Shown here: piece by piece, positions 1-61,000 of the stretch
Position numbering within the stretch: the first letter of the stretch is position 1
Layout: each line of letters starts with the position of its first letter
From: Cyanidioschyzon merolae
Lineage: Eukaryota
DNA length: 64,000 nt
Assembly (NCBI GenBank): GCA_000091205.1
Contig: AP006499.2
Reading direction: 5' to 3' (one strand)
Position numbers and translations under genes: made by a program
Notes under the pieces: generated by a model
What the model saw: the letters and a program-made list of their open reading frames with translations, nothing else
The model's database searches: none
Told to the model about the DNA's origin: nothing

Positions 1-789
1 CGCAAACGCAGATCTTCCAGAGACACCGCAACGTCTTCACTTGATGCGCGAATCATGAACACAGCAGCATAAACTCAAGGTTGCAGCCCAACCTAGATGA
101 TATCCCAAAGCAGACTTACAAAGTGTAACCAGTCCTACCACAGGGCCGGCACTTGCCCTCCCGAACACAACCCAGACCGAACAATACGAATTGATTGTAT
201 AGAGCAGGCCGTTGGAGCCGACTACGAGGTTTGGCTTCGCCAATCGCGCGCGCCAGCTCAACGCGCATTCGGTTACCGCAAGTGCATCGCAGAAATCAGA
301 CAAAGGCGACGTCGCACGGAGCACACTTCAAATGAAACGGCGTCGTGATTGGAGCAGTGCCAGGAGCGCCGCGCACACCTCAGATGAAACGCATTCGCAT
401 GCGTGTGTGGCTGCGTGTGTTCGGATCGACGAGCGTCAGGCGCACTGCGATGCGCCTCAGTGCAGCAGCAGCAGCAACGAGATCGGCACAAGATTACGAA
501 GCGATGCGTGCCGGCGCGCGCGTTGTTTCCGAGATCCCAGGCGTCGACGCGTCGATGGTGGTGGTGGTGGCAGGCGGGCGCCTGGATCTCCATGTATGTC
601 AGGGCGGTACTGCGATGGGCAGTAGCGTCGGCACCAGCGACAGAGCCTATAGCAAGAGATTATTCTACGTGAGTTTCCGATCTACGAGACTTTATTTCAG
701 CTGCAGCACGATGCGAACACGCATGTGCCAAGGCGGGGTCTTGGACACGTGTCCTTCATCGATCGGTGAGGCGTCTCGCGCGGTGCACG

Positions 790-3545
790 CATCTCGCGAA
801 GTGAGCGCATCTGGGGGATCAGGCAGTCAATTGGAGCGACGCGCGTGTCGCCGTTGTTGAAGGGAAACGCGATGTTGATCTCTAGTGTGTTGTTCAGCTG
901 TAAAAGTTGTATTTGCGTTGGAGTCGAACAAAAATATAGTTTTCAATTCATTTGTGTTTCAGCCCTCAAACAAGTCTAGTCAAGTGTTCTTTCGCAGTAT
1001 ATAACAGAAGGGTTCACAGAGCGTTCTTTCTCAAGAAACTGAAAAAAGAAAAGTTATGAAAAGCAAGTCCACGATCCTGGAGGCCCAGGGCCGCCGGCTG
1101 CCAGACAAAAAAAACGAAAAACAGTGCCGAGTCCAGAAGAAAAGGAAGAGAAGAAGAACCGAAATGGGGAGGCCCTACGTCGAAGGCTGCAAGAAAGACG
1201 ACAGTACAACGAGATGGTGGTGAAAGCCTTTCTTCTTGGACATATCAAGGATCCGTACAGGGAAAAGTTGCGAGACGCTATCGAAAAACTTGTCGACTCG
1301 TACTCCAAGAGTACTGTCAAGGCGTCGTCAGGACTGATGCATTTGGCGAGGGAGATGTACGAAGACGTGGCGCACATGGAAACGGTCGAGATTCCGGACG
1401 AGTTTTTCGACAAGACGTTTATTCGTCACCTGATGCTTGGTACAGCGGAAACGCGGAGGGAAAATGAGCGGGTTCACGCTCTTCACGAAAACTTCGCGGA
1501 GCTCCGCTTCGAGAGTAATCGATACAGGGGTGATCGGGATATTTAGACAAACGGAGCGAAAAAGCACATCACCAGTCTGAAGTACCATTTGACAGTGAAC
1601 ATCGAACGTTTCGTGATACGGGCCGTGTTTCCACTCTACTCGAGCCTATCTCGCAATGGAAAATGGGCGATTATCAATGACATCACGAACGATCGTAATC
1701 ATGAAGATGAGGTCGAATTTGTCGACAAGAAGGCGGCAAACCAGAGCACGAATGAAGCTTCTGAAATCCGTGCGGTTATACAAGAGCACCGTGCGGTACT
1801 AGGGTTGGCGAATCCAACAGAAAAGATATCAGAGCTGAAAAAAGATAAGGAAAGATGCTATCGCCTCGTCTTACGGTATTTCGCGTTTTCGTTCCGAGAA
1901 CTCGAACCCAAGACCGAAAAGCGTCTGAGTAGGGGAAAAATGCAGAGTCGGAGAGACGGAAGGTTTTTGCAATGGGGAAGCGCTTCAACGTGGTTCCAAT
2001 GTGCAACATTAAGTCACATTTTGTGAGTATCGACTCCGGCGTCCTTTACGGCATCATGAAAGAGATCTGTCGGAGTTCAGTGTCAGCAGGGAGGAATTCA
2101 CCGGCGAAAACCGGGAGACGTACTGGAGGATTAACTTCAATTTCAAACGTCTGGAAGCGAGCAAACAGCAGGTATTCACTGGAATGATCGAAACCGATGG
2201 AGTAGCCTTGCGTGTACACTATCGGCGGTTGAAGAAAGATCGTCCAGTTCCGCCCTCGGCGAACCATGAAGATGAGAAGGAGGCGGATCCTGTGACGCAG
2301 GAGGTGGAGGATAACGACTTTATGGTTGGCGCGGCGAAGCATAAAGATGGGAAGGAGGCGGGTCCTGCGACGCAGGAGGTGGAGGATAACGACCTTGTCG
2401 TTGACGTAACGAAGGATGAAGATAAGAAGGAGGCGGATCCTGCGATGCAGGAGGTGGAGGATAGCCACATTGTCGTTAGCGCTACGAAGCATGAAGAAAA
2501 GAAGGAGGCGGGTCTTGAGACGCAGAAAGTGCATGATGACGACTTTGTCGTTGGCGCTGACCCCAGAAACACAAATATCATCACCATCGCAGCACCGAAG
2601 CGCGCAGAAGATAGTACTGACGGTAACTTGCGTCAGAAAGACATGCGTCTGCTGAGGTTCTCGAGAGCGAGATACGGCCGAGAATCGGGAATCATGAATG
2701 CAAGGAACAAAATCGAGACTTGGAATACAGGAATGAAGGATCTCCTGGAAGCTATGAGCAAGGTGACGAGCCGAGGAGCGGACTTTCATGCTTTTCGGGA
2801 GTTTATGCAAGTTCGTGTTGCTCATTGGGATGCACTGTGGGAGGAGTATACAAAGCCCCGGTGGGCTCGGTTGCGTATGAATTTGTACAGTGGGAAGCAG
2901 CGGGAGTTCGCGATCTTTTTCAATCACTTGAGTGCCCTCAAAGAGGACAAGACTCAAAGGCTCGTAGTAGCATACGGAGCAGGGCGCTGGGCGCCCAAGA
3001 AAGGTACTACGCCAGCTCCAACGACGAGGATGTACAAGTCGTGTGCACGGCGTTTTCTTACAATACCTGTAGATGAGTTTCGAATGTCCTACACACACCT
3101 CGAGCTGGTTTGTACACTTCAGAGGGTCGAGATGGAAAAGTGCCAGCCGAGCCCTGAGGAAATAGCAAAGTACGGACCGCTGACGGAGGAGCAAATGGAA
3201 AGGAGAGCGAAATTTCGTGGACTACTGGCACTGGTGAGTACAACTCCCAACGGCACGAATCGTATGGAGTTTGTTAACCGAGACTTTAACGCCGCTCTCA
3301 ATATAAGGAAATGTGCGGTGCTGGAGACGAGACCTCCAGAGTGGACAAGAGGGAACTTTTTTGGACAACCTCTTCAAGTTCAGTTATATGAGAAGAAGTT
3401 GGAAGCAGCAGTAGGTGGCCGGTCGAAAGAAACTGGAAGGCGTCTGTACGTCAGTTGGAGACTTCTTGGCTAGGGCACGGTTGCCGCCACTACTGTACAC
3501 CGCTGGCGTCGTTCGACTTTCGAACGGCGTTCGGATGCGGCGGAC
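790..3545 (+). mobile_element. TnpB/Fanzor-like (RuvC-nuclease) transposon, copy 1; pseudogenised
   Basis: About 2.7 kb homologous over its whole length to the reverse complement of 23445-26065 and 53700-56530. The 5' non-coding leader 'gcatctggggg..gtcgccgttg(ttg)aagggaaacgcgat..' is shared. The ORF encodes RuvC-I '[20 protein letters not shown]', '[25 protein letters not shown]' and RuvC-III 'NRDFNAALNIRKC'. A conserved tail 'ccactactgtacaccgctggcgtcgttcg' continues past the stop codon. Boundaries are approximate (+/-30 bp). Confidence 0.7.
1056..3473 (+). pseudogene. Fanzor/TnpB-like nuclease ORF of copy 1, interrupted
   Basis: Pieces 1056.., 1124..1546 (in-frame TAG where copy 3 reads YIYGAMKY), 1589..2026, 1972..2187 and 2184..3473 (429 aa intact C-terminal RuvC-like core). 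Frameshifts and the nonsense codon were found by comparison with the other two copies. Confidence 0.7.
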
Positions 3546-14009: not shown

Positions 14010-15256
14010 CGCGGCGAAACGACGTTGACCACGACTTTGGCGACGATGACGATGACGCTGATAACGAACAGCGCTCTCTGAACGCCAGTTTCAAGTGCCT
14101 CGTCACGCCAGAAGCTCTAAGGAAACGTTCACGACAACGACGACGACAACAACAACAGCAACGACAACCACGAAGGAGCGTTAGACGTTCGCCAGCACAC
14201 CAGCGTCGCGAATGCTCCGAAACGGAACGCCGGAGCGGAGCGCGCCAGCCCGTCCAGATTCGGCAACGCGACGTCGGGCGAATCGCGCAGGCAGCAGCAC
14301 GGCGCGCCAGCGCCCAGAGGCCTCCGTATGGATGTGTTCCGATTTTGCTCAGATTTTACAGGATGTTGACACAGGCCAGCGTGCCGCCACGGGGTGGTGC
14401 GCGTGCGATCCGCGCGCGGTGAAGAAGCATCCAGCATACGACATCGGAGAACGCTGGCCTAAGTAAACGTTTTGTCAATGAAAAAAATCCAGCATTCGAC
14501 GCCCTATGTCCAAATTCTATAATCCATGCTTCCTTCCGAACGGACTGGCCGTTCCATACGCTCTATCGTGCGCCGAGTGCGTGCGTTGCTGCATCCGCAA
14601 TAGAGCATATATCGCAGGTGCTTGTGCAGCTCGGAGATAGAACGGCTCTTCGATACCACCTAGGGCGCTTCGGCTCGAGGTATCATGCATTCAACACCGG
14701 ATCGCGTCTCTCCATCATTCTGGGGGCCTGCAAGCTGCGCAGCGAGACTGACTGCCCACGACAGCGCGAAACGATACGCAAGGAGATAACTGCAACCGGG
14801 GCGATACCTGGATGCATGCTACCCGCCCCTAGTCTCAAAATGAACCGCGTTACGGATGAGTCGCTGAGAGCTGACTACAGCTCCCGCCACTGTAGAAGAA
14901 TACGGAGCGATAGCCCGGTAGATGCGTCCATCTCGGGGGATCTTACGCCTAGCAGCTAAACATTCGACAATACGGAACGCTTCCCGCCCCTTTTCAACGC
15001 TTACCACGAAGGTGTAACGAAAAAATGGTCGCGTTGCTCGTTCATGATTCGTTGCTGTTCTCGGTTTTGGGTAGCCAGTCGCGATCGATCGCGGATCGCT
15101 GGCGGCCGCACGTTGCCGGCGGGCATGAACGGCCGCCGCACCTGCATCCGCTTACGGAGGCGGCTTCTGGCCACTCGGGCATATCTTGAAATATTTCAGA
15201 CGCAGAGACTAGCACTTTGCGCTGAAGAGTTGGTTGACCGAAGAGACGTGAACGGC

Positions 15257-17379: not shown

Positions 17380-18720
17380 GGCGGCATCTGGGGTCTGTTG
17401 CCAGCGAACAGAGGCCGTGAGCATGCAATCGTTTCTCTGTACCCGTGTCAGATTAAAATGGAACGCTGGACTGATACAGCTGTTCGTGCACTCCGAGCTC
17501 CTTGCTCCGAAATGCTTCTAAGTGTGCAGTGTCGAGATTCGAAAAGCAACACTTTGGGTTTACGGATCGATCCGCAGCGTTAGGATTCTCGGTCGTCTTT
17601 TCGGATTCTTTTGTTCGACGCTTTGCAGCTGGAATTCGTTACGTCACCGGAATCAAGATGATTCGGGGCGCCTCAAACAAGAGTCCATGAAATAAGCGAT
17701 GTAATTATCCCGTTCACGGGGGGCAAGCCTCTGGGCTGCTCCTTCGGTTACGTGTAGCAGCGCAAATCACGCAGCCTTCAGGTTTTCGATTTTTCGAATT
17801 CATGGCAACTCGTGAGCGGAGCAATGCGAGCCGCTGGGTTCATAGCGACAGCCAGTCGACGTCGGGCGCTGAAGAACTTTTGAAGTCCATGTCGCGACGT
17901 TGCTGTACTTGCTATGTCACATAATCGATTGTGTGCGAAAGCGAAAACCCCTCTCTTTGTGGCCATCGGCGAAACGCCATTCGACATCAGCATCATGCCT
18001 CTCACGCGATATGCTCGCCGAGGTTCGCATCCCAACTATCTAAATGGAAATGCGTCTTGGACTCAGACTTGAGTTATCACGGCGACGGCTTGCAGTGGAG
18101 CGTGTGTCATCGTTTTGCATAACAGGAGCGTAGACGGATCGACATTTCTCGACGTGCTCTCCAGCCTGGGTCTTCCTTCTGGTGCCTTTTTCATCATCAC
18201 GTACACCATCGCGTTCCACAAATCGTCTACCGTATGGAACAGCATGCGCTCGCGTGTTCAAAAAACAGCGAACTCGCTGGGGAGATCGTACAGGAGAGGT
18301 CCGTGATCACAGGGTACGACACAAGGTGCGGAAACCGAGGTGAGCATCGAGAGGCGCCTCTCGTATTTGTCCAGACCACGGACCAGGCGATGATGGAAGC
18401 CTGCACGTCTCACATGGTGCCGGTCGGTGGAGGCGATTTGATGGACGTATAGGAACGAATGACCAGAAGTAAGTGTACCTGCGGTGAGAGGTGCAGCGAG
18501 GCTGTGGACAGAGAACATGAACATGGCAAGCGAATGGTAGATCACAACCTCCGCTTTGCATAAACTGCGTTGACAACATCCGGAAGCAGAAAATGTTCGA
18601 CTCGAACGCTGCCATCAATATTAGACGAGCCGTGAAGACGAGATCCGAAGAGCAGCGTCTGCCGAACATTGTGAGGCAGCCTCGCAGGCTCGAAGTGTGT
18701 CTGGATAAAGCCTGAAGCCG
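17380..18720 (+). repeat. dispersed ~1.3 kb repeat family, copy A
   Basis: Collinear ~70-75% identity to 51490-52790 and 59720-61000. Shared segments include 'aaaatggaacgctg', 'gggtttacgg', 'ggagcgtagacg.atcg..tttctcgac' and 'gaacatggcaagcgaa'. Confidence 0.8.
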
Positions 18721-23444: not shown

Positions 23445-26065
23445 AAGCACGGGTCTGCGTCTTACTTAGCGATGAGCCGCCACGAACGATAAACGTCTTT
23501 CAAAAGAAAAACGCTGTCGCCAGTCGTGTACAGTAGTGGCGACCGGCGCCTTAGACAAACCGTCTCCAACTCAGTGTAGACGCCTCCCCGTCTTTTGGAC
23601 CGGCCACCTACTCCTGCTTCCATTTTTTTCTCATATAGTTCCACTTTGGGAGGTTGTCCAAAAAAATTGTCTCTTGGCAAGTCGTCTCCAGCACCGTACA
23701 TCTCCGTATACTGATAGCGGCATTAAAGTCACGATTCACAAACTCCATACGTTTCTTGCCATCACTGGTTGTGCTAACCAATGCAAGTAGTCCCCGAACT
23801 TTCGCCCTGCTTTCCATTTGCTCTTCCGTCAGCGGTCCATACTTTTTTATATCCTCAGGGCTCCTCTGGCACTTTTCCATATCGACCCTCTGAAGTGTAC
23901 ACCCCAGTTCATGGTGTGTATACGATGTTCAAATTTCATCTACAGGTATCGTAACGAAACGCCTTGCGCACTCCTTGATCGTTCCTGTCGTTGGAGCTGG
24001 CGTAGTCCCTTTTTTCGACGCCCAGCGCCCTGCTCCGTATGCTACAACCAGCCTCTGACTTTCATTCTCCTTGAGGGCACTCAACTCATTGAAAAAATTC
24101 GGAAATCCCCGCTGCTTCTCACAGTATAGATTCATCCGCAGACGAGCCGACCGGAGCTTTGTATACTCTTCCCAAAGTGCATCCCAATGCGCAACATGAA
24201 CTTCCAGGAACTCCCAGAACGCTTCAAAGTCCGCTCCACGGCTCGTCATCTCGCTCAGAGCTTCCAGGTGATCCTTCATTCCATGTCTCGACTTTCTTCC
24301 TCGCATTCATTATACCGGATTCTCGATGGTATCTTGCTCTCGAGAACCTCAAAAGACGCATGTCTTTCTGACGAAAGTTGCCCTCAGTACCATCTTCCGC
24401 ACGCTTCGGTGCTGCGATGGTGATGATATTTGTGTTTCCGGGGTCCGCGCCAACAACAAAGTCGTTCTCCTGCACTTTCTGTGTGGCAGGATCCGCGTCC
24501 TTCTTTTCTTCATGCTCAGCCGCGCCAACGACAAGATCGTTATCCTCCACCTCCTGCATCACAGGATCCTCCTCTTTGTTTTCTTCATCCATCGTTACGG
24601 GCGCAGCCGAGGGCGGAACTGGCCAATCTTTCTTCGACGGCCGATAGTGTACACACAAGGCTACTCCATCAGTTTCGATCATCCCAGTGAATACCTTTTG
24701 TTTGCTCACTTTGAGACTTTTGAAATCGAAGACGTTCTTCCGGTACGTCTCCCGGTTTTCGCCGGTGAATTCCCCCCCTGCTGACACTGAACCCCAGACT
24801 GATCTCCTTCATGATGCCGTAAAGGATTCTGGAATCGATGCTCACAAAATGTGACTTGATGTTGCACACTGGAACGGCACTGAAGCGCTTCCCCATTAGG
24901 AAAGTCTTCCGGTCTAACGACTCTTCATTTTTTCCTCACTCAGATCCATCTCCGCCTTGCGTTCGAGTTCTCGGTCCAAAAATACGAAATCGCGCAGAAT
25001 TAAGGGACCACATCTTTTTCTATGTCTTCTCATATCTGATACCTCTGCTGCTGGATTCGCCAGCCCCAAGACTGCACGTTGCTCTTGTATAGCCTCACGG
25101 ATTGCAGAAGCTTAATTCTTTCTCTTGCGTAATCTCTTCTTGTCAACGAACTCGATCTCATCTTGATACTTTCGATCGTTCGTGATGCCATTGATAATCG
25201 CCCATTTTCCATCGCGAGATAGGCCCGAGTAGAGTGCAAACATGGCGCCTATCATGAAACGTTCGAGGTTTACTGTCAAATGGTTCTTCAGATTCGTGAG
25301 GTACTTCATCGCCCCATAGTCGTAAATATCCCGGTCACCCCTGTATCGAGTACCCTCGAAGCGGAATTCCGCGAAGTTTTCGTGGAGGGCATCCACTAGC
25401 ACATTTTCCTTCAGCGCTTGCGCTGTACCAAGCATCAGTTGACGAGTCAAGGTCTTGTCGAAGAATTCTTCCGGAATCTCGACCGTTTCCATGTGCATCA
25501 CGTCGCCGTACATCTCCCTCGCCAAATGCATCAGCCCTGACGACGCCTTGACAATACTCTTCGAGTCTGAGTTGACACGTTTTTGATAGCATCTCGCAAG
25601 TTTTCCTTCGACGGATCCTTGATATATTTAAGAAGACCGGCGTTCACCACCATCTCGTCGTACTGTCGTCTTTCTTGCCGCCTTCGACGTAGCACCTCGC
25701 CCTTTTGCTTCTTCGCCTTTTCCTGTTCCTCTATATTCGGAACTGGTTCCGTTTTTCTCCGGCAGCTGTCCACGCTACTCCTCCAGGATATTTTACTTCC
25801 TTTTCCATAACTTTCCTTTTTTCAGTATTTTTCGGAAAGAACGCTCTTCGAACGCTTCTGTTATAAACCGCGAAAAATCACTTGAATTATCTAAACCGAA
25901 GTTTGAGACACGATTGAACAGAAAACTATAGTTTGCTATGACTTGAACGCAAATGCAACTTGTACGGCAGAGCAAGATCATAAACATCAGGACCACGTTT
26001 CCCTCCAACGGCAACATGCGCGTAGTATCTCATGCCTGCATGATCTCCCAGGTACGCGTATCGAA
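23445..26065 (-). mobile_element. TnpB/Fanzor-like transposon, copy 2; pseudogenised
   Basis: ORF fragments 25812<-25531, 25531<-25112, 24896<-24669, 24787<-24224 ([17 protein letters not shown]), 24306<-23929, 23880<-23608 (NRDFNAAISIRRC) and 23701<-23462 are homologous in order to copy 1. The stop codon is lost, so the frame reads into the conserved tail. The tail ends ~30 bp from the proA ATG. Confidence 0.7.
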
Positions 26066-27031
26066 CACACTATGTGGAACAAAGAACAGAGACGAACGAT
26101 TCACGAGCTTCGATATATATATATATTTCGTTCCCCCCTCTACGATGAACGTTACAAGGGGGAAAGATTTCGGTATTTTAGAAAGTTTACCTCCTAGGCG
26201 GAAGGTCCATAGAGCCGTACGAGTCTGCTAGGCTGGTGCTCGGTGTGCCTCTAAAGTGGCTGGTGCTTTAGCGAGACCTGAGCAACTCGTCTGCAACGCA
26301 GTTTATACTAGGTCTCGGATAGGGTATGCTGCGTTTGGGCGTCGCCCAGGTCCTAGTGGGCTCCTTGTATATCGCTTCGCGCTACCACAGGCAGAACGTC
26401 TCTCTGTACAGCTTGCAGGCTCCCAGAATGATAATTAACCGTGATTCCGTGTCAGGTGTAGGATTCTGCGAGCCGACGCCCTCAGTGGTATGGCAAAGTC
26501 GTTCTGTCTCCGTGCAGCGTCTGCCCCAGTGGTATACGCGCTACGGCGGGTGCAGCAAGGCAGGCACTCGGCACACGACAGAACATACGAAACGGCCAGT
26601 ATACCCGAGAGGAAGTATAAGTAGTGGAACTTGAATGTAGGTGCTTCATCACTGACGCTTTCCCGCAAGCCATGACCCATCCCGAATTCTGGGATGCATG
26701 GTCAATGTAATCGTTTTGTCATCTGGAAAAACAGCAACATGAACATCGACGACATGCGTCATGAGAAACGTGCCAAGGAATGCTAGTCATATACAAAGCG
26801 GTCATGCGAATCCAGAAATCATGGACATGGGCATCGCAATGCCGGTCCATGATCGACAGCCATGCGAACATGCATGACATGTCCATTGCAATGCGACAAT
26901 CTATGACATGCGGCGATGAAAGAGCGTGCAGCGAACGCGCGCGCCGATCGACATGGCGCGCCGCGATCGAGACGCGCGCGTCGTTCGCGCGGCGGTGACC
27001 TGTTTTCGGTAACGCACAAACGACGACGAGT

Positions 27032-32599: not shown

Positions 32600-33155
32600 T
32601 GAATGGACTAGCACTGAAGAACCACGCGTCTGGAGTCGCATCCTCGAACTTGATGGTCATGACTCACCAGTTCATTGCGAGTATCCGTCGAGGACACTAA
32701 AATGTCGGGGATTGGATGCATATCGAGAAACCACGCGTCTGGAGTCGCATCCTCGGACTTGATGGGTATGACTCACCAGTTCATTGCGAGTATCCGTCGA
32801 GGACACTAAAATGTCGGGGATTGGATGCATATCGAGAAACCACGCGTCTGGAGTCGCATCCTCGGACTTGATGGGTATGACTCACCAGTTCATTGCGAGT
32901 ATCCGTCGAGGACACTAAAATGTCGGGGATTGGATGCATATCGAGAAACCACGCGTCTGGAGTCGCATCCTCGAACTTGATGGGTATGACTCACCAGTTC
33001 ATTGCGAGTATCCGTCGAGGACACTAAAATGTCGGGGATTGGATGCATATCGAGAAATCATGCGTCTGGAGTCGCATCCTCGAACTTGGTGGGTATGACT
33101 CACCACTTCATTGCGAGTATCCGTCGAGGACACTAAAATGTCTAGAGGTTGACTC
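32600..33155. repeat. tandem satellite, ~109-bp unit x ~5
   Basis: 'ccacgcgtctggagtcgcatcctcg(a/g)acttgatgg' recurs at 32622, 32731, 32840 and 32949, with a degenerate copy near 33057. The unit contains 'ccgtcgaggacactaaaatgtcggggattggatgcatatcgagaaac'. Confidence 0.9.
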
Positions 33156-41765: not shown

Positions 41766-42543
41766 CGCCTCGCTCGCCCGGAATGCCGATCAGCATCGCG
41801 CAGTCGAGAATCCCTGCTCCATCGCAACGCTCCGTTGATCCGGCGTTCAGGAGCGCCTCGCTCGCCCGGAATGCCGATCAGCATCGCGCAGTCGAGGATC
41901 CCTGCTCCATCGCAACGCTCCGTTGATCCGGCGTTCAGGAGCGCCTCGCTCGCCCGGAATGCCGATCAGCATCGCGCAGTCGAGAATCCCTGCTCCATCG
42001 CAACGCTCCGTTGATCCGGCGTTCAGGAGCGCCTCGCTCGCCCGGAATGCCGATCAGCATCGCGCAGTCGAGAATCCCTGCTCCATCGCAACGCTCCGTT
42101 GATCCGGCGTTCAGGAGCGCCTCGCTCGCCCGGAATGCCGATCAGCATCGCGCAGTCGAGGATCCCTGCTCCATCGCAACGCTCCGTTGATCCGGCGTTC
42201 AGGAGCGCCTCGCTCGCCCGGAATGCCGATCAGCATCGCGCAGTCGAGAATCCCTGCTCCATCGCAACGCTCCGTTGATCCGGCGTTCAGGAGCGCCTCG
42301 CTCGCCCGGAATGCCGATCAGCATCGCGCAGTCGAGGATCCCTGCTCCATCGCAACGCTCCGTTGATCCGGCGTTCAGGAGCGCCTCGCTCGCCCGGAAT
42401 GCCGATCAGCATCGCGCAATCGAGAATCCCTGCTCCATCGCAACGCTCCGTTGATCCGGCGTTCAGGAGCGCCTCGCTCGCCCGGAATGCCGATCAGCAT
42501 CGCGCAGTCGAGGATCCCTGCTCCATCGCAACGCTCCGTTGAT
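41766..42543. repeat. tandem minisatellite, 88-bp unit x ~9, immediately upstream of GALT
   Basis: Unit 'cgcctcgctcgcccggaatgccgatcagcatcgcgcagtcgag(a/g)atccctgctccatcgcaacgctccgttgatccggcgttcaggag'. Copies differ mainly at gagaatcc versus gaggatcc. Confidence 0.92.
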
Positions 42544-42739
42544 CGAGGAAGTACGCCAAGCATCAAGCGGCCGTCACGTGTGCGTGCTGCTCCCGGTCGC
42601 ACGCGCGCTCCTGCCGCCGACCCAGGCGATCTCGCGTCGGGCGCGCACCGCATTATGTCTGTACCATGCTTTGTTTGCTATTTAGGGTATCTTCTCATCG
42701 AAGAAGCGCCCTGGGACCTAACATCCAACTACACCAAGC

Positions 42740-43213: not shown

Positions 43214-44842
43214 AACGGCTGGAGCCGTCTGGGCACACGTACTGTCCAGAACCTGTGCACCGGGAATAGTCCCTATGATGAAAAATTCCTATTTTACTCG
43301 GAACGTAAAGCACGGCGCGAATCGCTTTCGCCTTGAGCCGCCGACGCATCCGCGCGCCGTATTTTTTGACTGCGGCCGCATTTGAGTCTGGCGTCTTGTC
43401 CATGCGTTGTGAGCGCGCGATAACGTGCAGGAGAAACGAGTAGTTCCAGAAGGTGCACCAGACACCATTCGGGTCGTAGGCCGATCTCCAAACGGCTTTT
43501 TGCGAGACGCACCTGTGAAGATGGAGGCTGTCGAGAGCGCGCGCCCTGCTCCGCACTGTACCAAATTCCGGGGACGATCGCGTTCGAGCGCGGGAGCAGC
43601 GCCTCCCGTAAGCAATACGGACCCCATCAAGGCAACCGCCGGGGCTGCGATGCGCGCTACCCCTGCGGGTGATGGCTCCTGAACGTGCACCATCACAGCT
43701 GGGCGTACCAGCGAGCGAACAAAGCGCATCAGCGAGCAGAGCACATGATCGTATGGAACATCGGCATCGGGGGAGCTTTTACTCGTATACGCTGTAGCAT
43801 CAAACGAATACTTAAACCCACATATACCAAGCATACCTACAAACCCGACGATTGTTTGCCCCTAACCGCACAAGCGGATGCATCGCAGCGGCGGCGGCGG
43901 CGGCGGCCGGGGCCGCTCCATATTTCTCCAGCAGGGATCCGATCGTTGACGCATCAAGCGGGTATCCCGGGATGGCGCGATCGCTGCCAGCCTCTGGAAT
44001 GCGGCTCCAGTCGGGACGGGGCGGGACCAGCCGGGCGTGCCCGCTGGTGTGGCATTCTCGACGCATGCCCAGTCGATGCTCCTCGGCGGCGCGTAAAATC
44101 GGCATCACCACCCGTCCGTGCGAACGTGCTGTGCGCATGCAAGAACGATGAGCTGCAGCGCTCTCGCAGACAGCGTCAGGCGACGTCGAGTTCGAGTGTG
44201 TGGGTTTTTTTTCATTGAGAAAACGTTTACTTTGGCCAGCGTTCGCCGATCATGCGCATTGTTCTTTTCTTACCTTTTTTTCTCTTTTTTTCCAGTGCGC
44301 GGTAATGTATCTATCAACCCCCCACTCCCAAGTTACATTACCTGCACTTCTTCTCGGATATTCTGGTCGTTTCGTACGTCCAATCGTGTGCCTAGTGCCT
44401 GCCGAACGCGACAGCAATAGCGCCTATAGCGCCGGTACGGTCGCTGCACGGAGACAGAACGGCGTTGCTGTACCACACAAAGGGCGCCGGCTCGAGGTCG
44501 AGTGTGTGGGTGAGCGCGCGCGCGCGCGCGCGCGTGATCAGAGCGAGGCACACCGCACGCACACCTAGAGTCGCTGTCCATGCGCCACGTGTGCATGAAC
44601 CCCGCGCACCGGTCCAAAACGGAGCGTGCGCCGTACCACCCCGGTGATCCAGGCGCGCCAAACTGGGACTAGGCGCGGCATCGCGACGAGCCTCTCGCAG
44701 AGCGCCCGTTAGCGACGTCCCGCACCGGCGCCGCCCAGTCGAGAACGAATGCCGCCCCCCGGTGATGCCAGACGCGCGCGAATGTTCGCCACTGTCGGAA
44801 TGCTTCCTGTTGCTGCGTGCTGGAGCAATACCTCGGACGGGA

Positions 44843-49259: not shown

Positions 49260-51489
49260 AGAGTACGCTTTCTTCCGAAAGTGTTGGAAACGGGGTCAGC
49301 ACCCCGTCAGACCAGGTGTCCGTCGACTCGTCGGAATCTTGAATGCTGCTGCGCTGCGCTGCTCGACGACGGGGTAGACGCCCAAGCTCTGCAAGGCATT
49401 TGTAAAAGGCGTGCTCAAACGTACTGAGACAGTCGTTTCATCCCAGTTTCCCCTGTGTGACTGTATCAGAATCTAATTCTCGTTATATACGAGACCTAGG
49501 ATACCACATCCTCCATTTTGCATCAAGACACATCGGTCTCGAAGGATGGTGTGGTGTTTTTTGTCACTGAGCTGTGATGTTTGTGTTCCGTCTTACGACA
49601 AAACGGGGCAAGTCGCTGATTCGCTCTGATGCTGATCCTCAACTGCTCCGGATTGATGTGGCACTTGTTGTCATCGCGCTTCCCTTTGATGCCTGGGCTG
49701 GGAGCGTCTTCGACGAATCTAGCACTCTCGTAGCGCAACACATAGTGGATCCGAGATAAACACACGACCTGCTTTCTTTTTCTTTCGTTTCTTTATTGGT
49801 AATGACCCTCGTCGTCATCATTTCGTTCAAATTCGTGAGGCGACTTGCGCAACAAGAATACTCTGTCGACGCCCGGCATTCATAGCTATCCACCACATGC
49901 ACATTCCGCAATTCCCCGCACTACTGTTTGGTGGTTTCTTCCTGCACCGAACGTTGGACAAGAGCTCGGATGCTTGGCTCGCGCATCCCGGTCTCCGAAC
50001 CAGATGGCTGTATCTTGGCCACCTGGCACCAGCATGGGTTGCAGATCCCATGGATTGCATCCTGTTCGAATATGGGGCGGACGGCACCTCAGTCGCTCGT
50101 ACCCGGAACGAGCTCTGCGCTTTAGTCATTCAGGAAGAACGCTTAAATGCGCTCGCAGATACGTTTTGTAAGCCAAGTCCGTCGTCTCGCATCTGGTGAG
50201 ACGAGCAGTCACATGCTCTGTCTGTTGAATCTTGTTTTTTGCGTGTTCCTCGTGCTGTAAACGAGCCTCGCCTCGAGGCCGTATCTTCTGCTTCGGTCAA
50301 CGGCACGTATCTGACCCTGGGCTCGAGTACGCGACGGCGACCAGGTCCAGAATACCTGGCTCTTGGCCCACGAGTCTTTCGTAATTTTTCAGAGGCGGGA
50401 GGCTTTCTTCGTCTGCCATTTGCCCCGAGATATTCGGCGATGCGCTCAGTTGAAAGCTAGAACCGAACCCATCCGAGAGAAAATGGAAACTGAATGCACC
50501 GTTTCTGGTTTCGGCTGCTTAGATATTAAGGTTTTCGCGTTAAACCTTCCTCTTCATTTCCTCACTCGCTTTCCTTTCATTCTCAGCATGCCGTGGCGTC
50601 GTAGAATGCCCACGACACTCAAGTAAGTTAAAGGAACGTAACCAGTGATGAAGCCACGCTTTGTAGACAAGAGAGTGTACGTCGTGGGGCGTAGTGTACC
50701 TCTTCTGTCTTGTGCATCCTATTTTCGCCGGGAATTTGAAGCATTTACACACTTTTCTACCAATTCGTTTCACAGCGAAAGAGGCCAACGCTTCTTGGAA
50801 GAATGTCTCAGAGACATGCCTTGGGGAATGCATCTCTTCACGTCTTCCACGATCTCTGCCGCCAAGTTCAGCTTCGAATTACTTGTTCGGTCACTCGGAC
50901 GGAAGCGAACCTCGAGACTTTCGAACGATCCCGCGGGTACGACACAGGAAATCTCTTTTTCTCTCTCCCGAGGCTCTCTTTATTCATTTTCCATACTCCA
51001 GCTTGATCGAATCCTATCTAGGAACGACCACCCGTTTGTGGCCGCTCCGCTCGCCCGAGCTTCGGCCTTCTTGCATCCGCGTCCTCTCAGTGTCTGTTCG
51101 AAGCGAGATAAACGATCATGTGAACAGCGTCCGTCATCGCAAGCGAGAATCCCCAGAATGTGCAAGATCGCAAGGGCGTAGGGTTCCCTTCCCAGTCAGT
51201 TGCCTAAGGTAACTTTAAAACGGGAACGAGACACTTTATATTTCTTGGCGATGATGGTCTTGCAGGGAAGCAACCAGCTACATCTCGGTGAAGCGAACTT
51301 CCCCTTGGGTCACTCGCTCTCGTTCGTCATCCTCTCTCTCCCCAGCTCGAGTCAGACGGTACATTTTTTCTGTGCACCACAGGATGTGTTACACTGGTCC
51401 CAACAGCATAATGTCTTTCTTCACGTGGAAACATACCTTGAATCTCTAATTTATTCGAGAAAACCGAAGACTCGATACGTCATTTTGTT

Positions 51490-52790
51490 GCTCCAGAGGA
51501 GCTGAACCAGCTTTGCACAAGCGCTGGTGTATGGACGCTGCACTCGGTAACGACGAAATGGAACACACCTGGTCGCAGTGTTGCGATTTCTTTTCCGGGT
51601 TTTTTCAATTGTCCCGCCTTCTTATTCGAAACCCAGAAATAGGAACTTTCGGATTGACACGAACAATACGTATACATGGTTGTCGACTCGGAGAGGCCCC
51701 TTCGATTCGTAGCCATTGGAATTCCGTAGCTCCCGGGAATCACGATGATTCGCGACGCTCTCGAACAAGAATTCGTAAAATAACCTATACCATGATGCAA
51801 TGCATCCGTGCATGCCTCGAGTCATCTTGTATTTGCTAACATGCAGCATGTTCGAATAACGCATGCTTCATGTTTCGATCTTTGTGTCTCGAGGCAACTC
51901 GTCGGCGCTAGAATACGTGCCGCTGGATTGACGACACAAAAAAAAACGCGACATCGTTCATTGACGACTTGTTCGCAAGCTCGTGCTGAAAGTTTGCTGA
52001 GCAATCAAAGTCTAATAATCGATTCCATTCGATTGAAAAATCCTTCTCGGTTTACAATCATCGATGAAACGACATTCCACGTCATCTTGATATCTTGTAT
52101 GATGTATGGTTCCAGATGCTTCCGTCTTCGCATTTTGTACGGAAAACCGTCTTCGACTCGGACTTGAGTTGCCATGGCGATCGCTTCCGCTGGCGAGGTC
52201 GTCATTGCTCTGTATGATGCTTGTGGAACGGATCGAAAGATCTCTGTTTGATCGCCAACCTGGATTTTTCTTCCAGTACTTGTTTCATTGTGGACCAGAT
52301 CTCGTTCCACTAGCCCTCTATCGAATAGAACAGTGTACGCGTCACGGGTATCGCCCAGACGAAGCCCCTGGTTATAGAGTACGGCATCGAACGCGGAAGA
52401 GGAGGGCAGCATCAAGCCGATCCTCGTGCATTCGTCAAAGGAATGTACCAAGCGATAAAACAAGCGTTTACGCGCCACACGGCGACGCCGTGAGCAGGAG
52501 AAAGTGTACTAGACTCCTAGGAACATCTCACCACAGCCAGGTGTCACCAATACGAGGCGCGCACGGAGGCTCGACATCACTTTGTTGAAAATGACAAGCA
52601 GAGCGTAGATCACAACTTCCATATGTGCAAGAGGTAGGTTGACAACAACCGCAAACAGCGAAATCTGGACTTGGACGCTACGATCAATATCTTTCGAACG
52701 TTGCCAACGGAGCTGTAGTGAACGATGAGACCAGCGTTTTGAAAGCTCGAGATATGAGAGAGCATTATGGGGAAAAGTCGATGAAAAAGC
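51490..52790 (+). repeat. dispersed ~1.3 kb repeat family, copy C
   Basis: Collinear with copies A and B. Contains minus-strand ORF 52005..52478 encoding 'FDRGLVERDLVHNETSTGRKIQ', conserved in copy B as 'FDREFLERDLVHDEASTVRINF'. Confidence 0.8.
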
Positions 52791-52912
52791 GAGTATTGGT
52801 TGCTGCTGATGACAGCGGAAATAGATCCAAAGTTGAGCATGTACTCCCGAGTTAGCAGAATGCACCTGTTCCATTTTTATATTAACATTGGCGTAGAATG
52901 GATCAGGTTCAT

Positions 52913-53707
52913 TCAAATTGCTCGATTGGGATCCTGACTGCGCGCAGAAGCTGCACTTTGTTCGCTGGTGAACGCCCTGCCAGAGGCTGGTTTCCGAGGC
53001 ACACCCCGCGTGGCCTCCGTCAGCCAGCCACCACCCGAGTCCTGGCCGTGACCGCTCGAAACCGCACTCGAGTTCATCGTTCGCCGTGAAGATGCGTCAG
53101 TGGTCGGCTCGATGTACTGCGCTGCGGGAGCCGAAACTCCACCCTTCTCCAGTCCGTCTGCCTGGTCGGTGTCCTCAGTGCCGGACGCTTGGCGTTTGCC
53201 CCAGAACCAGCCGCGCCCCGTTTTCGTGGACCCGGACGATGCTGATGCGGCCGCTGTGGTGTGCGTTGGGCCCGCATCCGCCGCAAACTCATGATTCTTG
53301 CCAAAGAAGACGTTGAGGAAACTGAAAGAGACGATGACGGCCCCAGATACAATTAGGAGCACTTTGCTCACGGTATCGCTGTCGCTAACACCAGCCGTGA
53401 TAGCCAGCGAACCGGTGAACATCTCGAACAAGCCACGTCCCCAGCGCCCTTTCAAGAACCCGAACGGGCGGAAAAAGAAACGAGGCCGACCGATTTCACC
53501 AAATATAATCAGCAAACCGAAAAACGCGACATACAGCATCACAATGAAGCCCAGCGGGTTGCGCAGCGCCTGTGCTGCTGTCGTGAAAAGCGTCACGAGC
53601 CCGAAAACTCCGGTGAAAACGAGAAAACCCCCCGAAACCACTGTGCACCACCGGAGCACTGTGCTTACCTTCCGCAGATCAGCCTCAAAGCAAATGCAGT
53701 TCTTCAT
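52913..53707 (-). CDS. hypothetical multi-pass membrane protein
   Basis: Likely start MKNCICFEADLRK at 53707; the longer ORF to 53791 runs into the transposon tail. Four hydrophobic segments are followed by an S/T/G-rich C-terminus. Confidence 0.45.
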   Translation of the reverse strand: MKNCICFEADLRKVSTVLRWCTVVSGGFLVFTGVFGLVTLFTTAAQALRNPLGFIVMLYVAFFGLLIIFGEIGRPRFFFRPFGFLKGRWGRGLFEMFTGSLAITAGVSDSDTVSKVLLIVSGAVIVSFSFLNVFFGKNHEFAADAGPTHTTAAASASSGSTKTGRGWFWGKRQASGTEDTDQADGLEKGGVSAPAAQYIEPTTDASSRRTMNSSAVSSGHGQDSGGGWLTEATRGVPRKPASGRAFTSEQSAASARSQDPNRAI

Positions 53708-56530
53708 CGAAACGAGCCCAAAACGTGCGATGAACGACGCCGACCGTGTACAGCAGTGGCGAACCGTACGCCCTGGACAGACCGTGTCCAACTGACGTGT
53801 AGACGCCTCCCCGTCTTTTCGGACCGGGCATCCACCACTGCTTCCAACTTCTTCTCATATAATTCCACTTTTAGAGGTTGTCCAATAAAGTTCTCTCTTG
53901 TCCAATCTGGAGGTCTTTCCTCCAGCACCGCACATTTCCTTATATGGATAGCGGCATTGAAGTCTCGGTTCACATACTCCATCCGTTTTTTGTTGCCATT
54001 GATTGTACGAACAAGCGCAAGGAGTCCACGAACGTTCGCCCTTCTTTCCATTTGCTCCCCCGTCATCGGTCCGTGCTTTGCTATTTCCTCAGGGCTCCGT
54101 TGGCACTTTTCTATCTCCACTCTCTGAAGTGTACACCCCAGTTCCTGGTGTGTATACGATGTTCGAAACTCATCTACAGGTATCGTAACAAAACGCCTTG
54201 CGCACGCCTTGTACACCCTCGTCGTTGGAGCTGGCGTAGTTCCTTTTTGGGTCATCCATCGTCCTGCCCCGTACGCTACAACCAGCCTTTGACTTTCATC
54301 CTCCTTCAGGACGCTCAACTCATTGAAAAATTCGCGAACGCCCGCTGGTTCCCACAATACAAATTCATTCGGAAACGAGCCCACCGGGGCTTGGTATACT
54401 CCTCCCACAGCGCATCCCAATGGGCAACACGAACTTCCATGAATTTCCGAAAAGCTTCAAAGTCCGCTCCACGGCTCGTCATCTCGCTCAGAGCTTCCAG
54501 GTGATCCTTCATTCCATGTCTCGACTTTCTTCCTCGCATTCATTATACCGGATTCTCGATGGTATCTTGCTCTCGAGAACCTCAAAAGACGCATGTCTTT
54601 CTGACGAAAGTTGCCCTCAGTACCATCTTCCGCACGCTTCGGTGCTGTGATGGTGATGATATTTGTGTTTCCGGGGTCCGCGCCAACAACAAAGTCGTTA
54701 TCCTGCACTTTCTGTGTCACAGGACCTGCCTTCTTGGTTTCTTCATGCTTCTCCGCGTAAACGACATGCACGTTATCCTCCACCTCCTGCGTCGCAGGAT
54801 CCACCTCCTTCTTTTCTTCATCCTTCGCCGCGTAAACGACAAGGTCGTTATCCTCCACCTCCTGCATCGCAGGACCAGCCTCCTCCCTTTCTTCATGCTT
54901 CGTCGTGTCAACGACAAGGTCGTTATCTTGCACCCTCTGCGTCGCAGGATCCGCCTCCTTCTCATCTCCATCCTTCGCCACGTCAACGACATGCACGTTA
55001 TCCTCCACCTCCTGCGTCGCAGGACCAGCCTCCTCCTTTTCTTCATCCTTCGTCACGGGCGCAGCTGAGGGAGGGACTGGCCGATCTGCCTTCAACCGCC
55101 GATAGTGTACACACAAGGCTACTCCATCGGTTTCGATCATTCCAGTGAATATCTTTTGTTTGCCGACTTTGAGCCGTTTGAAATCGAAGATATTCTTCCA
55201 GTACGTCTCCCGGTTTTCGCCGGTGAACTCTGTCCTCCTTACATCGAACTCCGGACTGATCTCCTTCATGATGCCGTAAAGGATTCTGGAATCGATGCTC
55301 ACAAAATGTGACTTGATGTTGCACATTGGAACCACGTTGAAGCGCTTCCCCATTAGGACAGCCTCCCGTCTCTCACACGCTTCATTTTTTTCCTCACTCA
55401 GCTTCGTTTCTGCCTTGCGTTCGAGCTCTCAGTCCAGAAACACGAAATATCGCAGGACGAGGCGATAGTATCTTTTCTTATCTTTTTTCATCTCTGATAT
55501 CTTGTCTGTTGGATTCACGAGCCCCAAGACTGCACGGTGCTCTTGTATAGCCGCACGGATTCCAGAAGCTTCATTCGTGAACTAGTTTGACGCTTTCTTG
55601 TCAACGATTTCGACCTCATCTTCACGCTTGCCATCTTTCGTGATGCCATTGATCATCGCCCATGTTCCTTTGCGAGATAGGCCCGGGTAGAGTGCAAACA
55701 CGGCGCGTATCATGAAACGTTCGAGGTTCACTGTCAAATGGTTCTTCAGGTTCGTGATGTACTTCATCGCCCCGTATATGTAAAAATTCGAGTCGCCCTT
55801 GTATCGAGTACCCTCGAAGCGGATTTTGGCGAAGTTTTCGTGGAGGTGCACTAGCACATTTTCCCTCCGCGTTTTCTCTCCACCAAGCATCAGGTGTCGA
55901 ATAAACGTCTTGTCGAAAAACTCGTCCGGAATCTCGACCGTTTCCATATCCGTCACGTCGCGATACATCTCCCTTGCCAAATGCATCAGTCCTGACGACG
56001 CCTTGACAACAATCTTGGAGTACGAGTCGACACGTTTTTTGATAGCGTCTCGCAACTTTTCCCTGTAGGGATCCTTGATATGTCCAAGACGAAAGGTTTT
56101 CACCACCTTCTCGTCGTACAGTCGTCTCTCGTGACGCCTTCGACGTAGGGCCTCCCCCTTTCGGTTCTTCTTCTCTCCCTGTTCTTCTGGACTCGGCACT
56201 GTTTTTTGTTTTTTTCTAGCAGCCGGCGACCATGGCCCTCCAGGATCGTGGACTTGCTTTTTCATAACTTTCCTTTTATTAGTTTTTTTTTGAAAAAGAA
56301 CCCTCTTTGAACCCTTGTGTTATATACTGCGAAAAAACACTTGACTAGACTTGTTTGAGGTTTGAAGCAAAAACGAACTGAAAGACTGTACTTTGCCACG
56401 TCTTTAACGCAAGTACAGCTTGCACATTAGAGCAGCACGCTATTGATCAGGATCGCGTTTCCCTTCAACGGCGACAAGTGCGTCGCATCAGTTGACTGCC
56501 CGATCTCCCAGATGCGCTCAGTGAGCGCGC
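53700..56530 (-). mobile_element. TnpB/Fanzor-like transposon, copy 3; pseudogenised
   Basis: Collinear with copy 1. Pieces are 56265<-55582 (227 aa basic N-terminus 'RKKQKT..KKNRKGEALRRRRHERR'), 55353<-54457 (298 aa with ~6 acidic repeat units and [17 protein letters not shown]), 54539<-54315 and 54420<-53704 (VDEFRTSYTHQELGC..NRDFNAAIHIRKC). Confidence 0.72.
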
Positions 56531-58094
56531 TGGGCGCATCGCCCCGTTAAAAACGCGCAAAGCACAGTGCCTCGACACAAGTCTACCCGTCGCGCACCGA
56601 GGCTAGGCGCAAGGCCGCTGGCGACGCCTTGGCTGGCCTGGTGTCGCTGCGCTCCGGAGACATCGACTCAGGTACCGAGTGTGGTGCCTGCGCAGACGCC
56701 GAGCGCCCCGTTACGAATAGAGAACGCACCGGTGAGCGTTCAAAGACCCCAGCAGACCGACAAGCATCCGCAAGTAGTCGACCGGCAGGTGTAAATACCC
56801 CAACGATCCAGCGCGTTGTTGTGGCAGCAGCAGTATCAGCGTCTCGTTCGGCTAACGTTGGTTGTAGAGACGCCAGCGGCACATACGGTTCAACACGAAT
56901 CACGCCCGTGCTTCCATACAGGTCGAACAGACCAAAGGAAGTTGTGCTAGTGTGCAGGACGTTACTAGGTCGAGTGCAGCGTCCCGCCCCGAGTTCGGTG
57001 GCGGCTCCAGCCACTCGGCCGGGAAAATACTGGCCAGCGAAAGCACTGCCTAAGCCACGAGCGCGACTGATGACCCAACGACCAAAACGCGCCTTTCTAA
57101 TAAAACGAGTTTGATCAGGCGCAACAAGTCCCGTCGAAGCCGCGTCACCAGCTGTTGGAGACTCGTGTCGCCAATGGCGTCGCGGTCCAGGCACGCTGGT
57201 AGTCGCTGCACTGGCACTGGTGTCGGTACCGGCAGTCGCTGCACTTCAGGGTCGCCCAACGCAGCCGCTTCCTCTTCATCCAGCGTCGTAACCAAGGTCC
57301 CGAAGCAGTCTACCTGCCCAAAGCTATGTTTCGCAAAGTAACTGGCAACCACCGGCTCAAGTCGACTCGCTAGAAGCGCATACAGCGGCCAACGACTCAA
57401 CAGTAGCACAGACTTTTGGACGAGACCTCGGGCTGTTGCAACAGCCTCCTCCTCAGCGCTAGCGATGCGACTGCAGTCCATCTGATGCTATCGGTAACAA
57501 GCTACACCGTACAACGTGTCGACAGTGACGCCCTGCCGAACCGTGAGGTACACCGTGTCGTGCTCGCGTCCATGCGCACCGTCGGGAAGCGCTCGCACGG
57601 CCACCTCGCGAAGCCAGTCGTTGTCAAGGTTCTGCGCTGAAGCTCCGGAGCGATCTTCTGTCTGGTTCACTTGCCAGTTCACCGACAACTCATCCGCTAA
57701 CTCAGCACACTCGACTTGGTACTCGTGCTTGGCGTGAAACCTGAACGCAAACCCGCGTTCACCGAACGGATCCGCAAAGCGCACGGCCGGTCGATCGTCG
57801 AGACGCCGCCCTCCTGCCCCATGCGATCTAGGCAGCGGGTATCGCTCTGTGCACAGAAGCGCGTTAAAACGGGTAGGCGTCGACTTCAGTGCAGCGGTGC
57901 AGCGAGGTATCCGTCTGAGTTGACTGAAAGCAGTTCGTGTCATGGAGACACGGTCGGCGGTCAGCGGGAAGGAAACCACGCAGATAACACCGAGCGGCAG
58001 GGGTGCAACACGCGCACCTGAGGGCCGTCACGCGTCCGTGGGCGCTGCAGCTGCTCGTGACGCGACCCTCGTGTTCCCCGAGGCACCGAAACGC

Positions 58095-59285: not shown

Positions 59286-59330
59286 GGTGGTGGCGGCGGT
59301 GGCGGCGGTGGCGGCGGCGGCGGCGGCGGT
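59286..59330. repeat. (GGC/GGT)n microsatellite
   Basis: ggtggtggcggcggtggcggcggtggcggcggcggcggcggcggt. Confidence 0.9.
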
Positions 59331-59719: not shown

Positions 59720-61000
59720 ATATCGTGGATTTGCTGAGACAGTTGTCGCACAGGTACCCGCTGGCATGGAATCACGGCCGCTAGCCCCGTGCCAGATGAA
59801 AATGGAACGCTGAACTGCTCGCTCTGTTCCTGAGCTTCGTCGTTGCTTCTGAAGATTTCATAGATATACAGGATCGATTTTCGAGGTCCAGCGACAGGGG
59901 TTTACGGATTCATGCGTTGATGGAGGATCCTCGGTTGTAGCTTAGGAGTGGCCTCTTCAACGCTTTGCTCCTGAAATTCGATATGTCTCGGGAATCGAAA
60001 TGATTCCTGATGCCCTAGAACAAAGTTTCATAAAATACCCACCATCATGATAAAATTTACAAGTCGAAGCTTCGATTCGACTGCTTTCCTTACGTGTAGC
60101 ATGCTCAGATCACGCTTGCTCCAAGTTTTCGGCCTTTATGATTCAGGGCCAATCGCGGGCACAGCACTGCGCGCCGCAGCATCGATGACCACGAAAAAAT
60201 ACATCGATCTCCTCTCTTGACGGCTTGTCCGGGTGCTCATGCAGAGAGTTCACTGAATCCGCCGGGGGTAAATACCGGATACCATTCGAAAAGAAAATTC
60301 GTTTGTCTTTGTGACGATCGATTGTACGGGATTCGAAAGAGACAGCACGATACTTCTGACGGGATATGCTCCAAAGGGTCACCGTCTCTGCTGGAGCTGT
60401 TGTGAGAGGTCTTACGCTCGGAGTTCGTTCATCGTCGAGATCGCTTCCAGTGGCGATTCCGTCATCGTTTTCCACATAGGGAGCGTAGACGAATCGGGAT
60501 TTCTCGACTTTATTCTCCAGCCGAGAAATTTATCCTTACAGTACTTGCTTCATCATGGACAAGATCGCGTTCCAGAAATTCTCTATCGAATGCGACAGCC
60601 TGCGCTTGGGCGCGCAGCGTACTCGCCAAGGGCTTCGCCCGGAAGATGCCCCCGGTTATAGGGTATTGCGCCAGGTGCGGACGCTGAGGCATGCAGCGGG
60701 TGAGCCTTCTGTTCCTGGCAAAGGCATGCACACAGCACTGAAGCAAGCGTCAACACAGGGCAGTGCTCTGACAAGGAGGATGGAGTGTAGTGTGCATACG
60801 GGAACGCCTAACCAAAGCCATGTGTCATCGTTTCGATTGGCGCACCCAGGCTCTGTACAACGACAATGAACATGGCAAGCGAAGCGCAGATCGGTACCTT
60901 TCCCTGTTCATGAACTACGTTGACAGCAGACGGAAGCTGCGAATTCGGAAGTTGAACGCTGCAGGCAACATCCCTTGAATGCTGATAGCGGCGCTTGAGC
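59720..61000 (+). repeat. dispersed ~1.3 kb repeat family, copy B
   Basis: Collinear with 17380-18720 along its whole length, and with 51490-52790. Minus-strand ORFs 60143..60475 and 60510..60746 are conserved in copy C. Confidence 0.8.

Follow-up and report, generated by a model that had tools for sequence, protein, structure and literature searches.

Three dispersed copies (A, B and C) of a repeat of about 1.4 kb lie in a 64,000-nt stretch of nuclear DNA of Cyanidioschyzon merolae 10D (contig AP006499.2; this whole stretch is called the window below). In this work, they are interpreted, with high but not full confidence, as remnants of an old, inactive class II cut-and-paste transposon of the IS630/Tc1/mariner superfamily with a Fanzor-derived tail, which is decaying neutrally. 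The original prediction, made from the letters of the window, had left two options: a non-autonomous transposon, or a small paralogous gene family with introns and minus-strand coding frames. The transposon option proved essentially right, since inverted repeats, ends flanked by TA and the remains of a transposase mark the family, more copies are found at unrelated loci, and copies B and C have no counterpart at the syntenic locus of the sister species Cyanidiococcus yangmingshanensis.

Self-comparison of the window revealed weak collinear matches among the three places, all within 45 kb, which blastn with relaxed scoring joins into single alignments of 1.1-1.2 kb at 60-62% identity (A, 17442-18621; B, 51624-52814; C, 59786-61095; E 1e-74 to 1e-95). 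Because these alignments are collinear and the copies match one another in nhmmer with E 1e-85 to 1e-113, the three-copy repeat in a single (plus) orientation is real, near the positions first proposed for it. The identity of 70-75% that had been claimed is reached only in short blocks, the overall pairwise identity being 57-62%; the DNA strings and minus-strand peptides quoted at the time are all present in the window. The nhmmer family profile detected no fourth copy in the window, and no DNA similarity to the three CMe-1A-type copies that form the first repeat family of the window (described below).

Further copies were collected from environmental C. merolae contigs near-identical to 10D. 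About 43 kb of loci fetched around copies of this first repeat family, as a sample of other parts of the genome, contained three more copies, and a scan of the JGI metagenome contigs with a degenerate 33-nt pattern added 31 loci. With orthologous copies collapsed, the total came to 14 distinct paralogous copies, those of the window included; they are 50-57% identical pairwise and are scattered in either orientation over many unrelated loci. With the antisense translation of copy B as query, a full HMMER search among 1.84 billion representative proteins identified 60 further short open reading frame (ORF) fragments from other copies, and together these two sets of matches indicate that the repeat family is large. 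Six copies occur in about 111 kb of DNA not picked for carrying one, which suggests hundreds of copies per genome, or several percent of the genome; since the window was flagged for its three copies, this extrapolation is biased, and the family is best described as probably abundant. The divergence is star-like, with 221, 201 and 184 lineage-specific changes. Two arrangements were also seen among the environmental contigs: two element copies placed head-to-head as an inverted pair (L042, 10635-12578), and one copy interrupted by an insert of about 1.5 kb at model position ~560 (L022, 4238-7165).

The limits of the element were derived from an alignment of 13 copies, in which conservation rises and falls sharply and thereby bounds a unit of about 1.4 kb; the limits of A, B and C were then refined by mapping them to the consensus of these copies. 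The left ends and the reverse-complemented right ends match each other as an imperfect terminal inverted repeat (TIR) of about 27-30 nt, CAC(T)CGTGTCAGAT(R)AAAATGGAAC, and the consensus CT..AC..TGTCAGA..AAAAT.GGAAC is common to the ends of 9-10 copies. A simple repeat finder missed the TIRs on single copies, and they are seen only in the multi-copy alignment. Of 17 ends, 10 have TA as the next two bases outward and 3 others have TG; no empty site close enough for direct comparison was found, Cyanidiococcus intergenic DNA being unalignable with that of C. merolae. A TA target-site duplication is typical of the IS630/Tc1/mariner superfamily. The TIRs would be the binding sites of the transposase, and the flanking TA would represent the target-site duplication.

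The ancestral gene was reconstructed on the plus strand, with domain calls made on the translations of the 13-copy consensus (1403 nt). Plus frame 2 contains a DDE_3 domain (PF13358; E 1.3e-9; score 38.6 bits, curated cutoff 28.6) preceded by HTH_33, HTH_Tnp_Tc3_2 and HTH_32 matches, i.e. the layout of Tc1/IS630 transposases with helix-turn-helix (HTH) domains at the N-terminus. The first two catalytic aspartates are found in their DDE_3 context (AIDET... and MDNxxxHK). Of the 146 profile positions, only 3-116 are matched by the consensus and only 3-93 by an intact relative, P0250 (see below). Beyond the second aspartate, the consensus sequence is Fanzor-derived. Plus frame 1, which begins about 15 nt past the second aspartate block (FIMDNIAFHK), reads GQRALARAAD...VIVGYGTGRG...VVDIREHLTTAKC...FRLCMKCV...NRDFNAAINI and matches the Cas12f1-like TNB domain (PF07282; E 1.1e-4). 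Frame 1 translations align with the C-terminus of CMe-1A-type Fanzor proteins (hhalign probability 96.9%, E 1.9e-10), and the Fanzor-like proteins P0251-P0257 are 40-53% identical to this part over their C-terminal third (E 1e-27 to 1e-31). The Fanzor C-terminal motif set is present: the RuvC-II glutamate, [TS][TS]xxC, a C4 zinc ribbon and RDxNAAxNI; the first CxxC is degenerate in the consensus and reads CNPC in one copy. No counterpart of the RuvC-I DPGR-type block or of the SSIETDG block, both found in the full-length proteins P0251 and P0253-P0257, was detected in the element, where the transposase sequence occupies the place of the Fanzor N-terminal part. A YSP motif after the second aspartate was considered as the third catalytic block of the transposase and rejected as an out-of-frame reading of the Fanzor part.

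The same chimeric layout was found in P0250, an intact ORF of 449 aa on the 2090-bp Logan contig L048 (assembly of SRR33769809). P0250 is collinear with the chimeric consensus, with 29% identity over 99% of the length (E 3.5e-34; blastp 2e-47), and matches DDE_3 (28.9 bits, cutoff 28.6), HTH_28 (25.2 bits, cutoff 25) and TNB (25.4 bits, cutoff 26.3). Upstream of the ORF, the contig carries GCTACACCTCCCTGACTTTAGAATGGAACA, which is clearly akin to the left end of the C. merolae family. Because P0250 has the same layout, the transposase-Fanzor junction is no accident of the C. merolae copies. No relatives of P0250 were found in viral and prokaryotic genome collections. In all aligned C. merolae copies, the second aspartate block and the Fanzor part lie in different frames with the same 5-nt offset, and the linker between them is about 29 codons shorter than in P0250; therefore, the master copy amplified in C. 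merolae was most likely a non-autonomous derivative that had suffered an internal deletion. A 90-nt extra segment at the junction of one copy was evaluated as a candidate ancestral linker and turned out to be an unrelated rearrangement. Another protein, P0252 (610 aa), is encoded at one conserved locus present in 17 contigs from another alga-like eukaryote (L049, 5001-6833; also L050-L052). It combines a glutamine/alanine-rich N-terminal part, lacking the RuvC-I block, with a well-conserved Fanzor C-terminus (VIIGYGTGRG...RNRDLNAAINI), and may be a domesticated or otherwise rearranged Fanzor.

Several observations weigh against this reconstruction. Neither in the consensus nor in P0250 can the third residue of the catalytic DDE triad be pinpointed, and the TNB matches of both fall just under the curated Pfam cutoff. 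The domain calls depend on the reconstructed consensus because the single copies of the window score nothing: A, B and C translated one by one, with frames corrected, give no Pfam hit, and among six single copies tested only one (copy E; DDE_3, E 0.0056) does. Copy A is without a recognisable right end. At such a degree of decay the TA duplication is beyond proof, the outermost bases of the TIR are uncertain, and the conserved C before the TA may itself be part of the repeat. The contig of P0250 shows no clear right inverted repeat, and the AlphaFold2 model of P0250, built from an 8-sequence alignment, is unusable (mean predicted local distance difference test score, pLDDT, 43.8). Finally, the number of stop codons in the antisense frame of copy B lies far below chance expectation, being reached by none of 3000 dinucleotide shuffles, and stands out as an oddity.

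Like known IS630/Tc1/mariner transposons, the element measures about 1.4 kb, shows TA next to inverted repeats of ~27-30 bp, and has a single ORF, paired N-terminal HTH domains and the first two catalytic aspartates. It differs from them in that a Fanzor C-terminus replaces the region of the third catalytic residue and the C-terminal helices, with a frame offset at the junction. Associations between Fanzor1 and Mariner/Tc1 elements have been described before, namely PGv-1, PUl-1 and PUl-4 (Bao & Jurka 2013, PMC3627910) and the Fanzor1c group (Jiang et al. 2023, PMC10530073). As in the present family, where the TA duplications are putative, Fanzor1-type sequence is enclosed there by mariner-type inverted repeats and TA duplications, and both autonomous and non-autonomous forms have been described. 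However, the published elements carry the transposase and a full-length Fanzor as separate genes and measure at least 2 kb, whereas the C. merolae unit of 1.4 kb retains only the last ~150 Fanzor residues, joined to a truncated transposase. It lacks the Fanzor N-terminal part with RuvC-I, together with the RNA-binding domains that published Fanzor structures place in that part.

A second point of comparison is provided by the first repeat family of the window, present at 780-3514 (+), 23518-26057 (-) and 53732-56542 (-) as copies of about 2.7 kb that are 80-85% identical. This family is of Fanzor1 type; its ORF contains DUF8286 and has more distant similarity to TnpB zinc-ribbon relatives. The published CMe-1A repeat has ~150 copies of ~3 kb, no inverted repeats and ~80% identity to its consensus (PMC3627910), a 253-copy WSV486-related repeat was reported in C. 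merolae (Nozaki et al. 2007, PMC1955436), and white spot syndrome virus (WSSV) figures among the listed Fanzor1 carriers (PMC3627910). From the ORF type, the size near 3 kb and the identity near 80%, we infer that the first repeat family, CMe-1A / TE-N2_CMe and the 253-copy WSV486-like repeat are the same. The present family shares with CMe-1A its host genome and a Fanzor1-type C-terminus with NRDFNAAI(N/H)I, and is nevertheless distinct from it: it has inverted repeats and a DDE_3 part, its Fanzor portion is nearer to P0251-P0257 (40-53%) than to CMe-1A (21% in hhalign), and it is older, with copies ~74-76% identical to the consensus and 50-60% identical pairwise.

C. merolae is cited as nearly transposon-free. 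Transposons were estimated at 0.7% of the genome, in addition to the 253-copy repeat (Nozaki et al. 2007, PMC1955436), and P-MITE reports no MITEs (miniature inverted-repeat transposable elements) for this species (PMC3964958). The present family is too decayed for ordinary repeat masking, and if it has hundreds of copies, much of the DNA in the long intergenic spacers of C. merolae would be old transposon debris. Eight C. merolae elements weakly similar to bacterial transposases were also reported (Nozaki et al., PMC1955436), and these could be its best-preserved members. No description of the family or of the fused transposase-Fanzor layout was found in the literature searched, Repbase not being covered. 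The family adds to C. merolae a second, older Fanzor-related lineage, and with it a compact layout in which a Tc1/IS630 transposase and a Fanzor C-terminus are fused in a single ORF.

The history of the insertions was studied by comparison with strains and with a sister species. In environmental contigs 98-99.7% identical to 10D, A, B and C occupy the same sites wherever these are covered, and the density of single-nucleotide polymorphisms (SNPs) in the copies (0.1-1.4%) is comparable to the density elsewhere in intergenic DNA. In Cyanidiococcus yangmingshanensis, the genes for GalT, FPGS, RRP45, COPI-associated protein, ubiquitin-conjugating enzyme (UBC) and MAP kinase (MAPK) follow one another in the same order at the syntenic locus, and no trace of copies B and C was found there. 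The UBC-MAPK spacer is 1732 bp in Cyanidiococcus versus 3149 bp in the window, a difference near the length of the element. The following scenario is proposed. The ancestral plus-strand gene encoded an N-terminal HTH region with the first two DDE_3 aspartates, joined a few codons past the second aspartate to the C-terminal ~150 residues of a TnpB-like Fanzor1. A non-autonomous master would have been moved in trans by a full-length relative, presumably by cut-and-paste, and its copies would have entered intergenic sites of the C. merolae lineage once this had split from Cyanidiococcus, to decay neutrally to ~25% divergence from the master.

The competing proposal of a small minus-strand family of paralogous genes, which might have introns, draws on the long antisense frame of copy B, whose 443 codons include 3 stops, on short peptides that seem conserved between B and C, and on the 60 ORF fragments of other copies that match this frame. 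A test of codon positions and indels gave no sign of reading-frame constraint. In tblastx, A, B and C match with similar scores in all six frames, each with stops. Mismatches in the best minus frame are spread evenly over the codon positions (0.42/0.42/0.44 for B-A and 0.40/0.41/0.39 for B-C), lineage-specific changes show no third-position excess, and only 2-3 of 14-19 indels per copy pair are divisible by three. The frame of copy B has weak codon-usage support, is interrupted by a frameshift in an environmental strain of 98% identity, and has no Pfam match and no homologue outside the repeat family; all that the HMMER search of 1.84 billion representatives yielded were short ORF fragments of repeat copies, two of them from copy B itself. 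RNase A matches of the minus frame in a PDB profile search were weak and were dismissed as spurious, and neither an Rfam nor a tRNA scan of the window gave a hit. The homology to DDE_3 and Fanzor places the ancestral ORF on the plus strand, the family has at least 14 copies and inverted-repeat ends, and the copies, far more than three in number, are intergenic in a near-intron-free genome. As judged from these substitution patterns, the minus-strand peptides are antisense read-outs of similarity at the DNA level, so they carry no weight as coding evidence, and a minus-strand gene family is hardly credible. Segmental duplication of a local intergenic block, to which three same-orientation copies in 45 kb might point, is equally hard to credit: the homology ends sharply at the inverted repeats with unrelated flanks, further copies are found at many unrelated loci in both orientations, and the divergence is star-like.

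More serious is the proposal that the elements were autonomous, the chimeric HTH-DD/Fanzor-C protein being a working transposase and the C. merolae copies its dead descendants. The intact ORF of P0250, which has this architecture and is preceded by a comparable left end, speaks for it, and its mere 29% identity to the consensus suggests that the chimera has been a long-lived ORF. On the other hand, the 5-nt offset and a linker shortened by about 29 codons are common to all aligned C. merolae copies, no intact 10D copy was seen among the protein matches, and P0250 is the one intact example known; we regard this proposal as unlikely, though it keeps a real share of the probability. Both parents of the chimera, the Tc1/IS630 transposase and Fanzor, have RNase-H-like folds. 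A hybrid enzyme, in which the HTH region and two aspartates of a Tc1/IS630 transposase are completed by the RuvC-II/zinc-ribbon/RuvC-III half of Fanzor, is a speculative and rather doubtful idea, as is the alternative that the Fanzor 3' segment kept with the right end holds a guide-RNA gene and that a full-length Fanzor in trans could serve the non-autonomous copies. If true, the hybrid would represent a type of transposase that has not been described before, from which the C. merolae copies would descend in decayed, frame-shifted form. Co-option of the copies as non-coding elements, such as a 3' untranslated region or terminator, regulatory DNA or a right-end Fanzor guide-RNA gene, is improbable. 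In its favor, copy B ends 18 bp from a stop codon, copy A fills a whole spacer, the copies persist at the same sites in the covering environmental contigs, and the retained segment comprises the Fanzor 3' end and the right end, where guide RNAs are located in TnpB/Fanzor elements (PMC10530073). Against it, the SNP density of 0.1-1.4% is no lower than in neighboring intergenic DNA, Rfam yields nothing, and the copies, at 40-45% divergence from one another, retain no conserved core apart from the ancestral coding blocks. The decayed non-autonomous transposon thus remains our preferred interpretation, and the coordinates of its copies are given in the table.

Table. Coordinates of the repeat copies and their parts in the window. 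D1 and D2, first and second catalytic aspartate blocks.
Feature	Position	Strand	Remarks
Copy A	17438-~18700	+	Consensus mapping; ~73% identical to consensus; right ~100 nt and right inverted repeat not recognisable
Copy A, left TIR	17438-17464	+	TGTACCCGTGTCAGATTAAAATGGAAC; TA just outside the CCCGTG core
Copy A, transposase remnant (HTH and DDE_3)	17522-18222	+	D1 (FVAIGET) 17956-17982; D2 18190-18222
Copy A, Fanzor-type C-terminal remnant	18237-18692	+	CxxC (LCINCV) 18554-18571; RuvC-III-like block (..SNAAINI) 18593-18622
Copy B	51539-52895	+	Complete end to end; ~75% identical to consensus
Copy B, left TIR	51539-51564	+	TGCACTCGGTAACGACGAAATGGAAC
Copy B, transposase remnant	51609-52313	+	D1 (TIIDETTF) 52051-52077; D2 (FIVDQISFH*) 52284-52313
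Copy B, Fanzor-type C-terminal remnant	52327-52751	+	EHLTTARC ~52515-52544; NLDLDATINI 52662-52691
Copy B, right TIR	52865-52895	+	CCTGTTCCATTTTTATATTAACATTGGCG, then TA
Copy B, antisense reading frame	51480-52949	-	3-4 stops in 443-516 codons; not a conserved gene
Copy C	59782-61173	+	Complete; ~76% identical to consensus
Copy C, left TIR	59782-59808	+	TAGCCCCGTGCCAGATGAAAATGGAAC
Copy C, transposase remnant	59864-60578	+	D1 60308-60334; D2 (FIMDKIAFQK) 60549-60578
Copy C, Fanzor-type C-terminal remnant	60593-61032	+	RERLTKAMC ~60796-60825; ..LNAAGNI 60943-60972
Copy C, right TIR	61141-61173	+	CACATTCCATTCTGTTCTGGCATCGGCACAGCC

The assignment of the window to C. merolae 10D nuclear DNA is based on six long ORFs identical to 10D proteins in the range BAM81959-BAM81969, and according to Pfam its genes are ordinary eukaryotic ones, intron-free and on both strands. 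All three copies are intergenic: copy A fills the spacer between the glutamate 5-kinase and peptidyl-tRNA hydrolase genes, copy B lies between the RRP45 gene and the ORF of a COPI-associated protein (52913-53707, minus strand), at whose stop codon it nearly ends, and copy C is flanked by the genes for a ubiquitin-conjugating enzyme and a MAP-kinase-like protein. The COPI-associated-protein ORF is intact (264 aa) and 66% identical to its Cyanidiococcus orthologue. Its exact sequence was found only in JGI/IMG gene calls, with no NCBI accession, and the flanking genes have the consecutive accessions BAM81968 and BAM81969; this ORF may be missing from the 10D annotation. Polymorphism is concentrated directly upstream of copy C, in the intergenic segment 58569-59756, which contains a G-rich run near 59300: differences amount to 3.2-3.5% in five of the six covering environmental contigs versus 0.1-1.4% in neighboring genes and repeat copies.

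Other repeats of the window were also cataloged. The third copy of the CMe-1A-type family, split in 10D, has an intact 611-aa ORF in a strain contig (L008:5753-7588), and 75-bp tandem repeats occur within copies of this family (2257-2558 and 54677-55057). A third, short repeat of ~300-550 bp with 70-92% identity is present at 14443-14988, 26158-26633 (-) and 44203-44498. One of its copies adjoins the 5' end of a CMe-1A-type copy, and the repeat may be equivalent to TE-N2_CMe, a 635-bp sequence that has been described as the 5' portion of CMe-1A. Two near-perfect tandem arrays, with units of 109 bp (93-98% identity) and 88 bp (98-99.5%), are located at 32620-33142 and 41766-42544, respectively.

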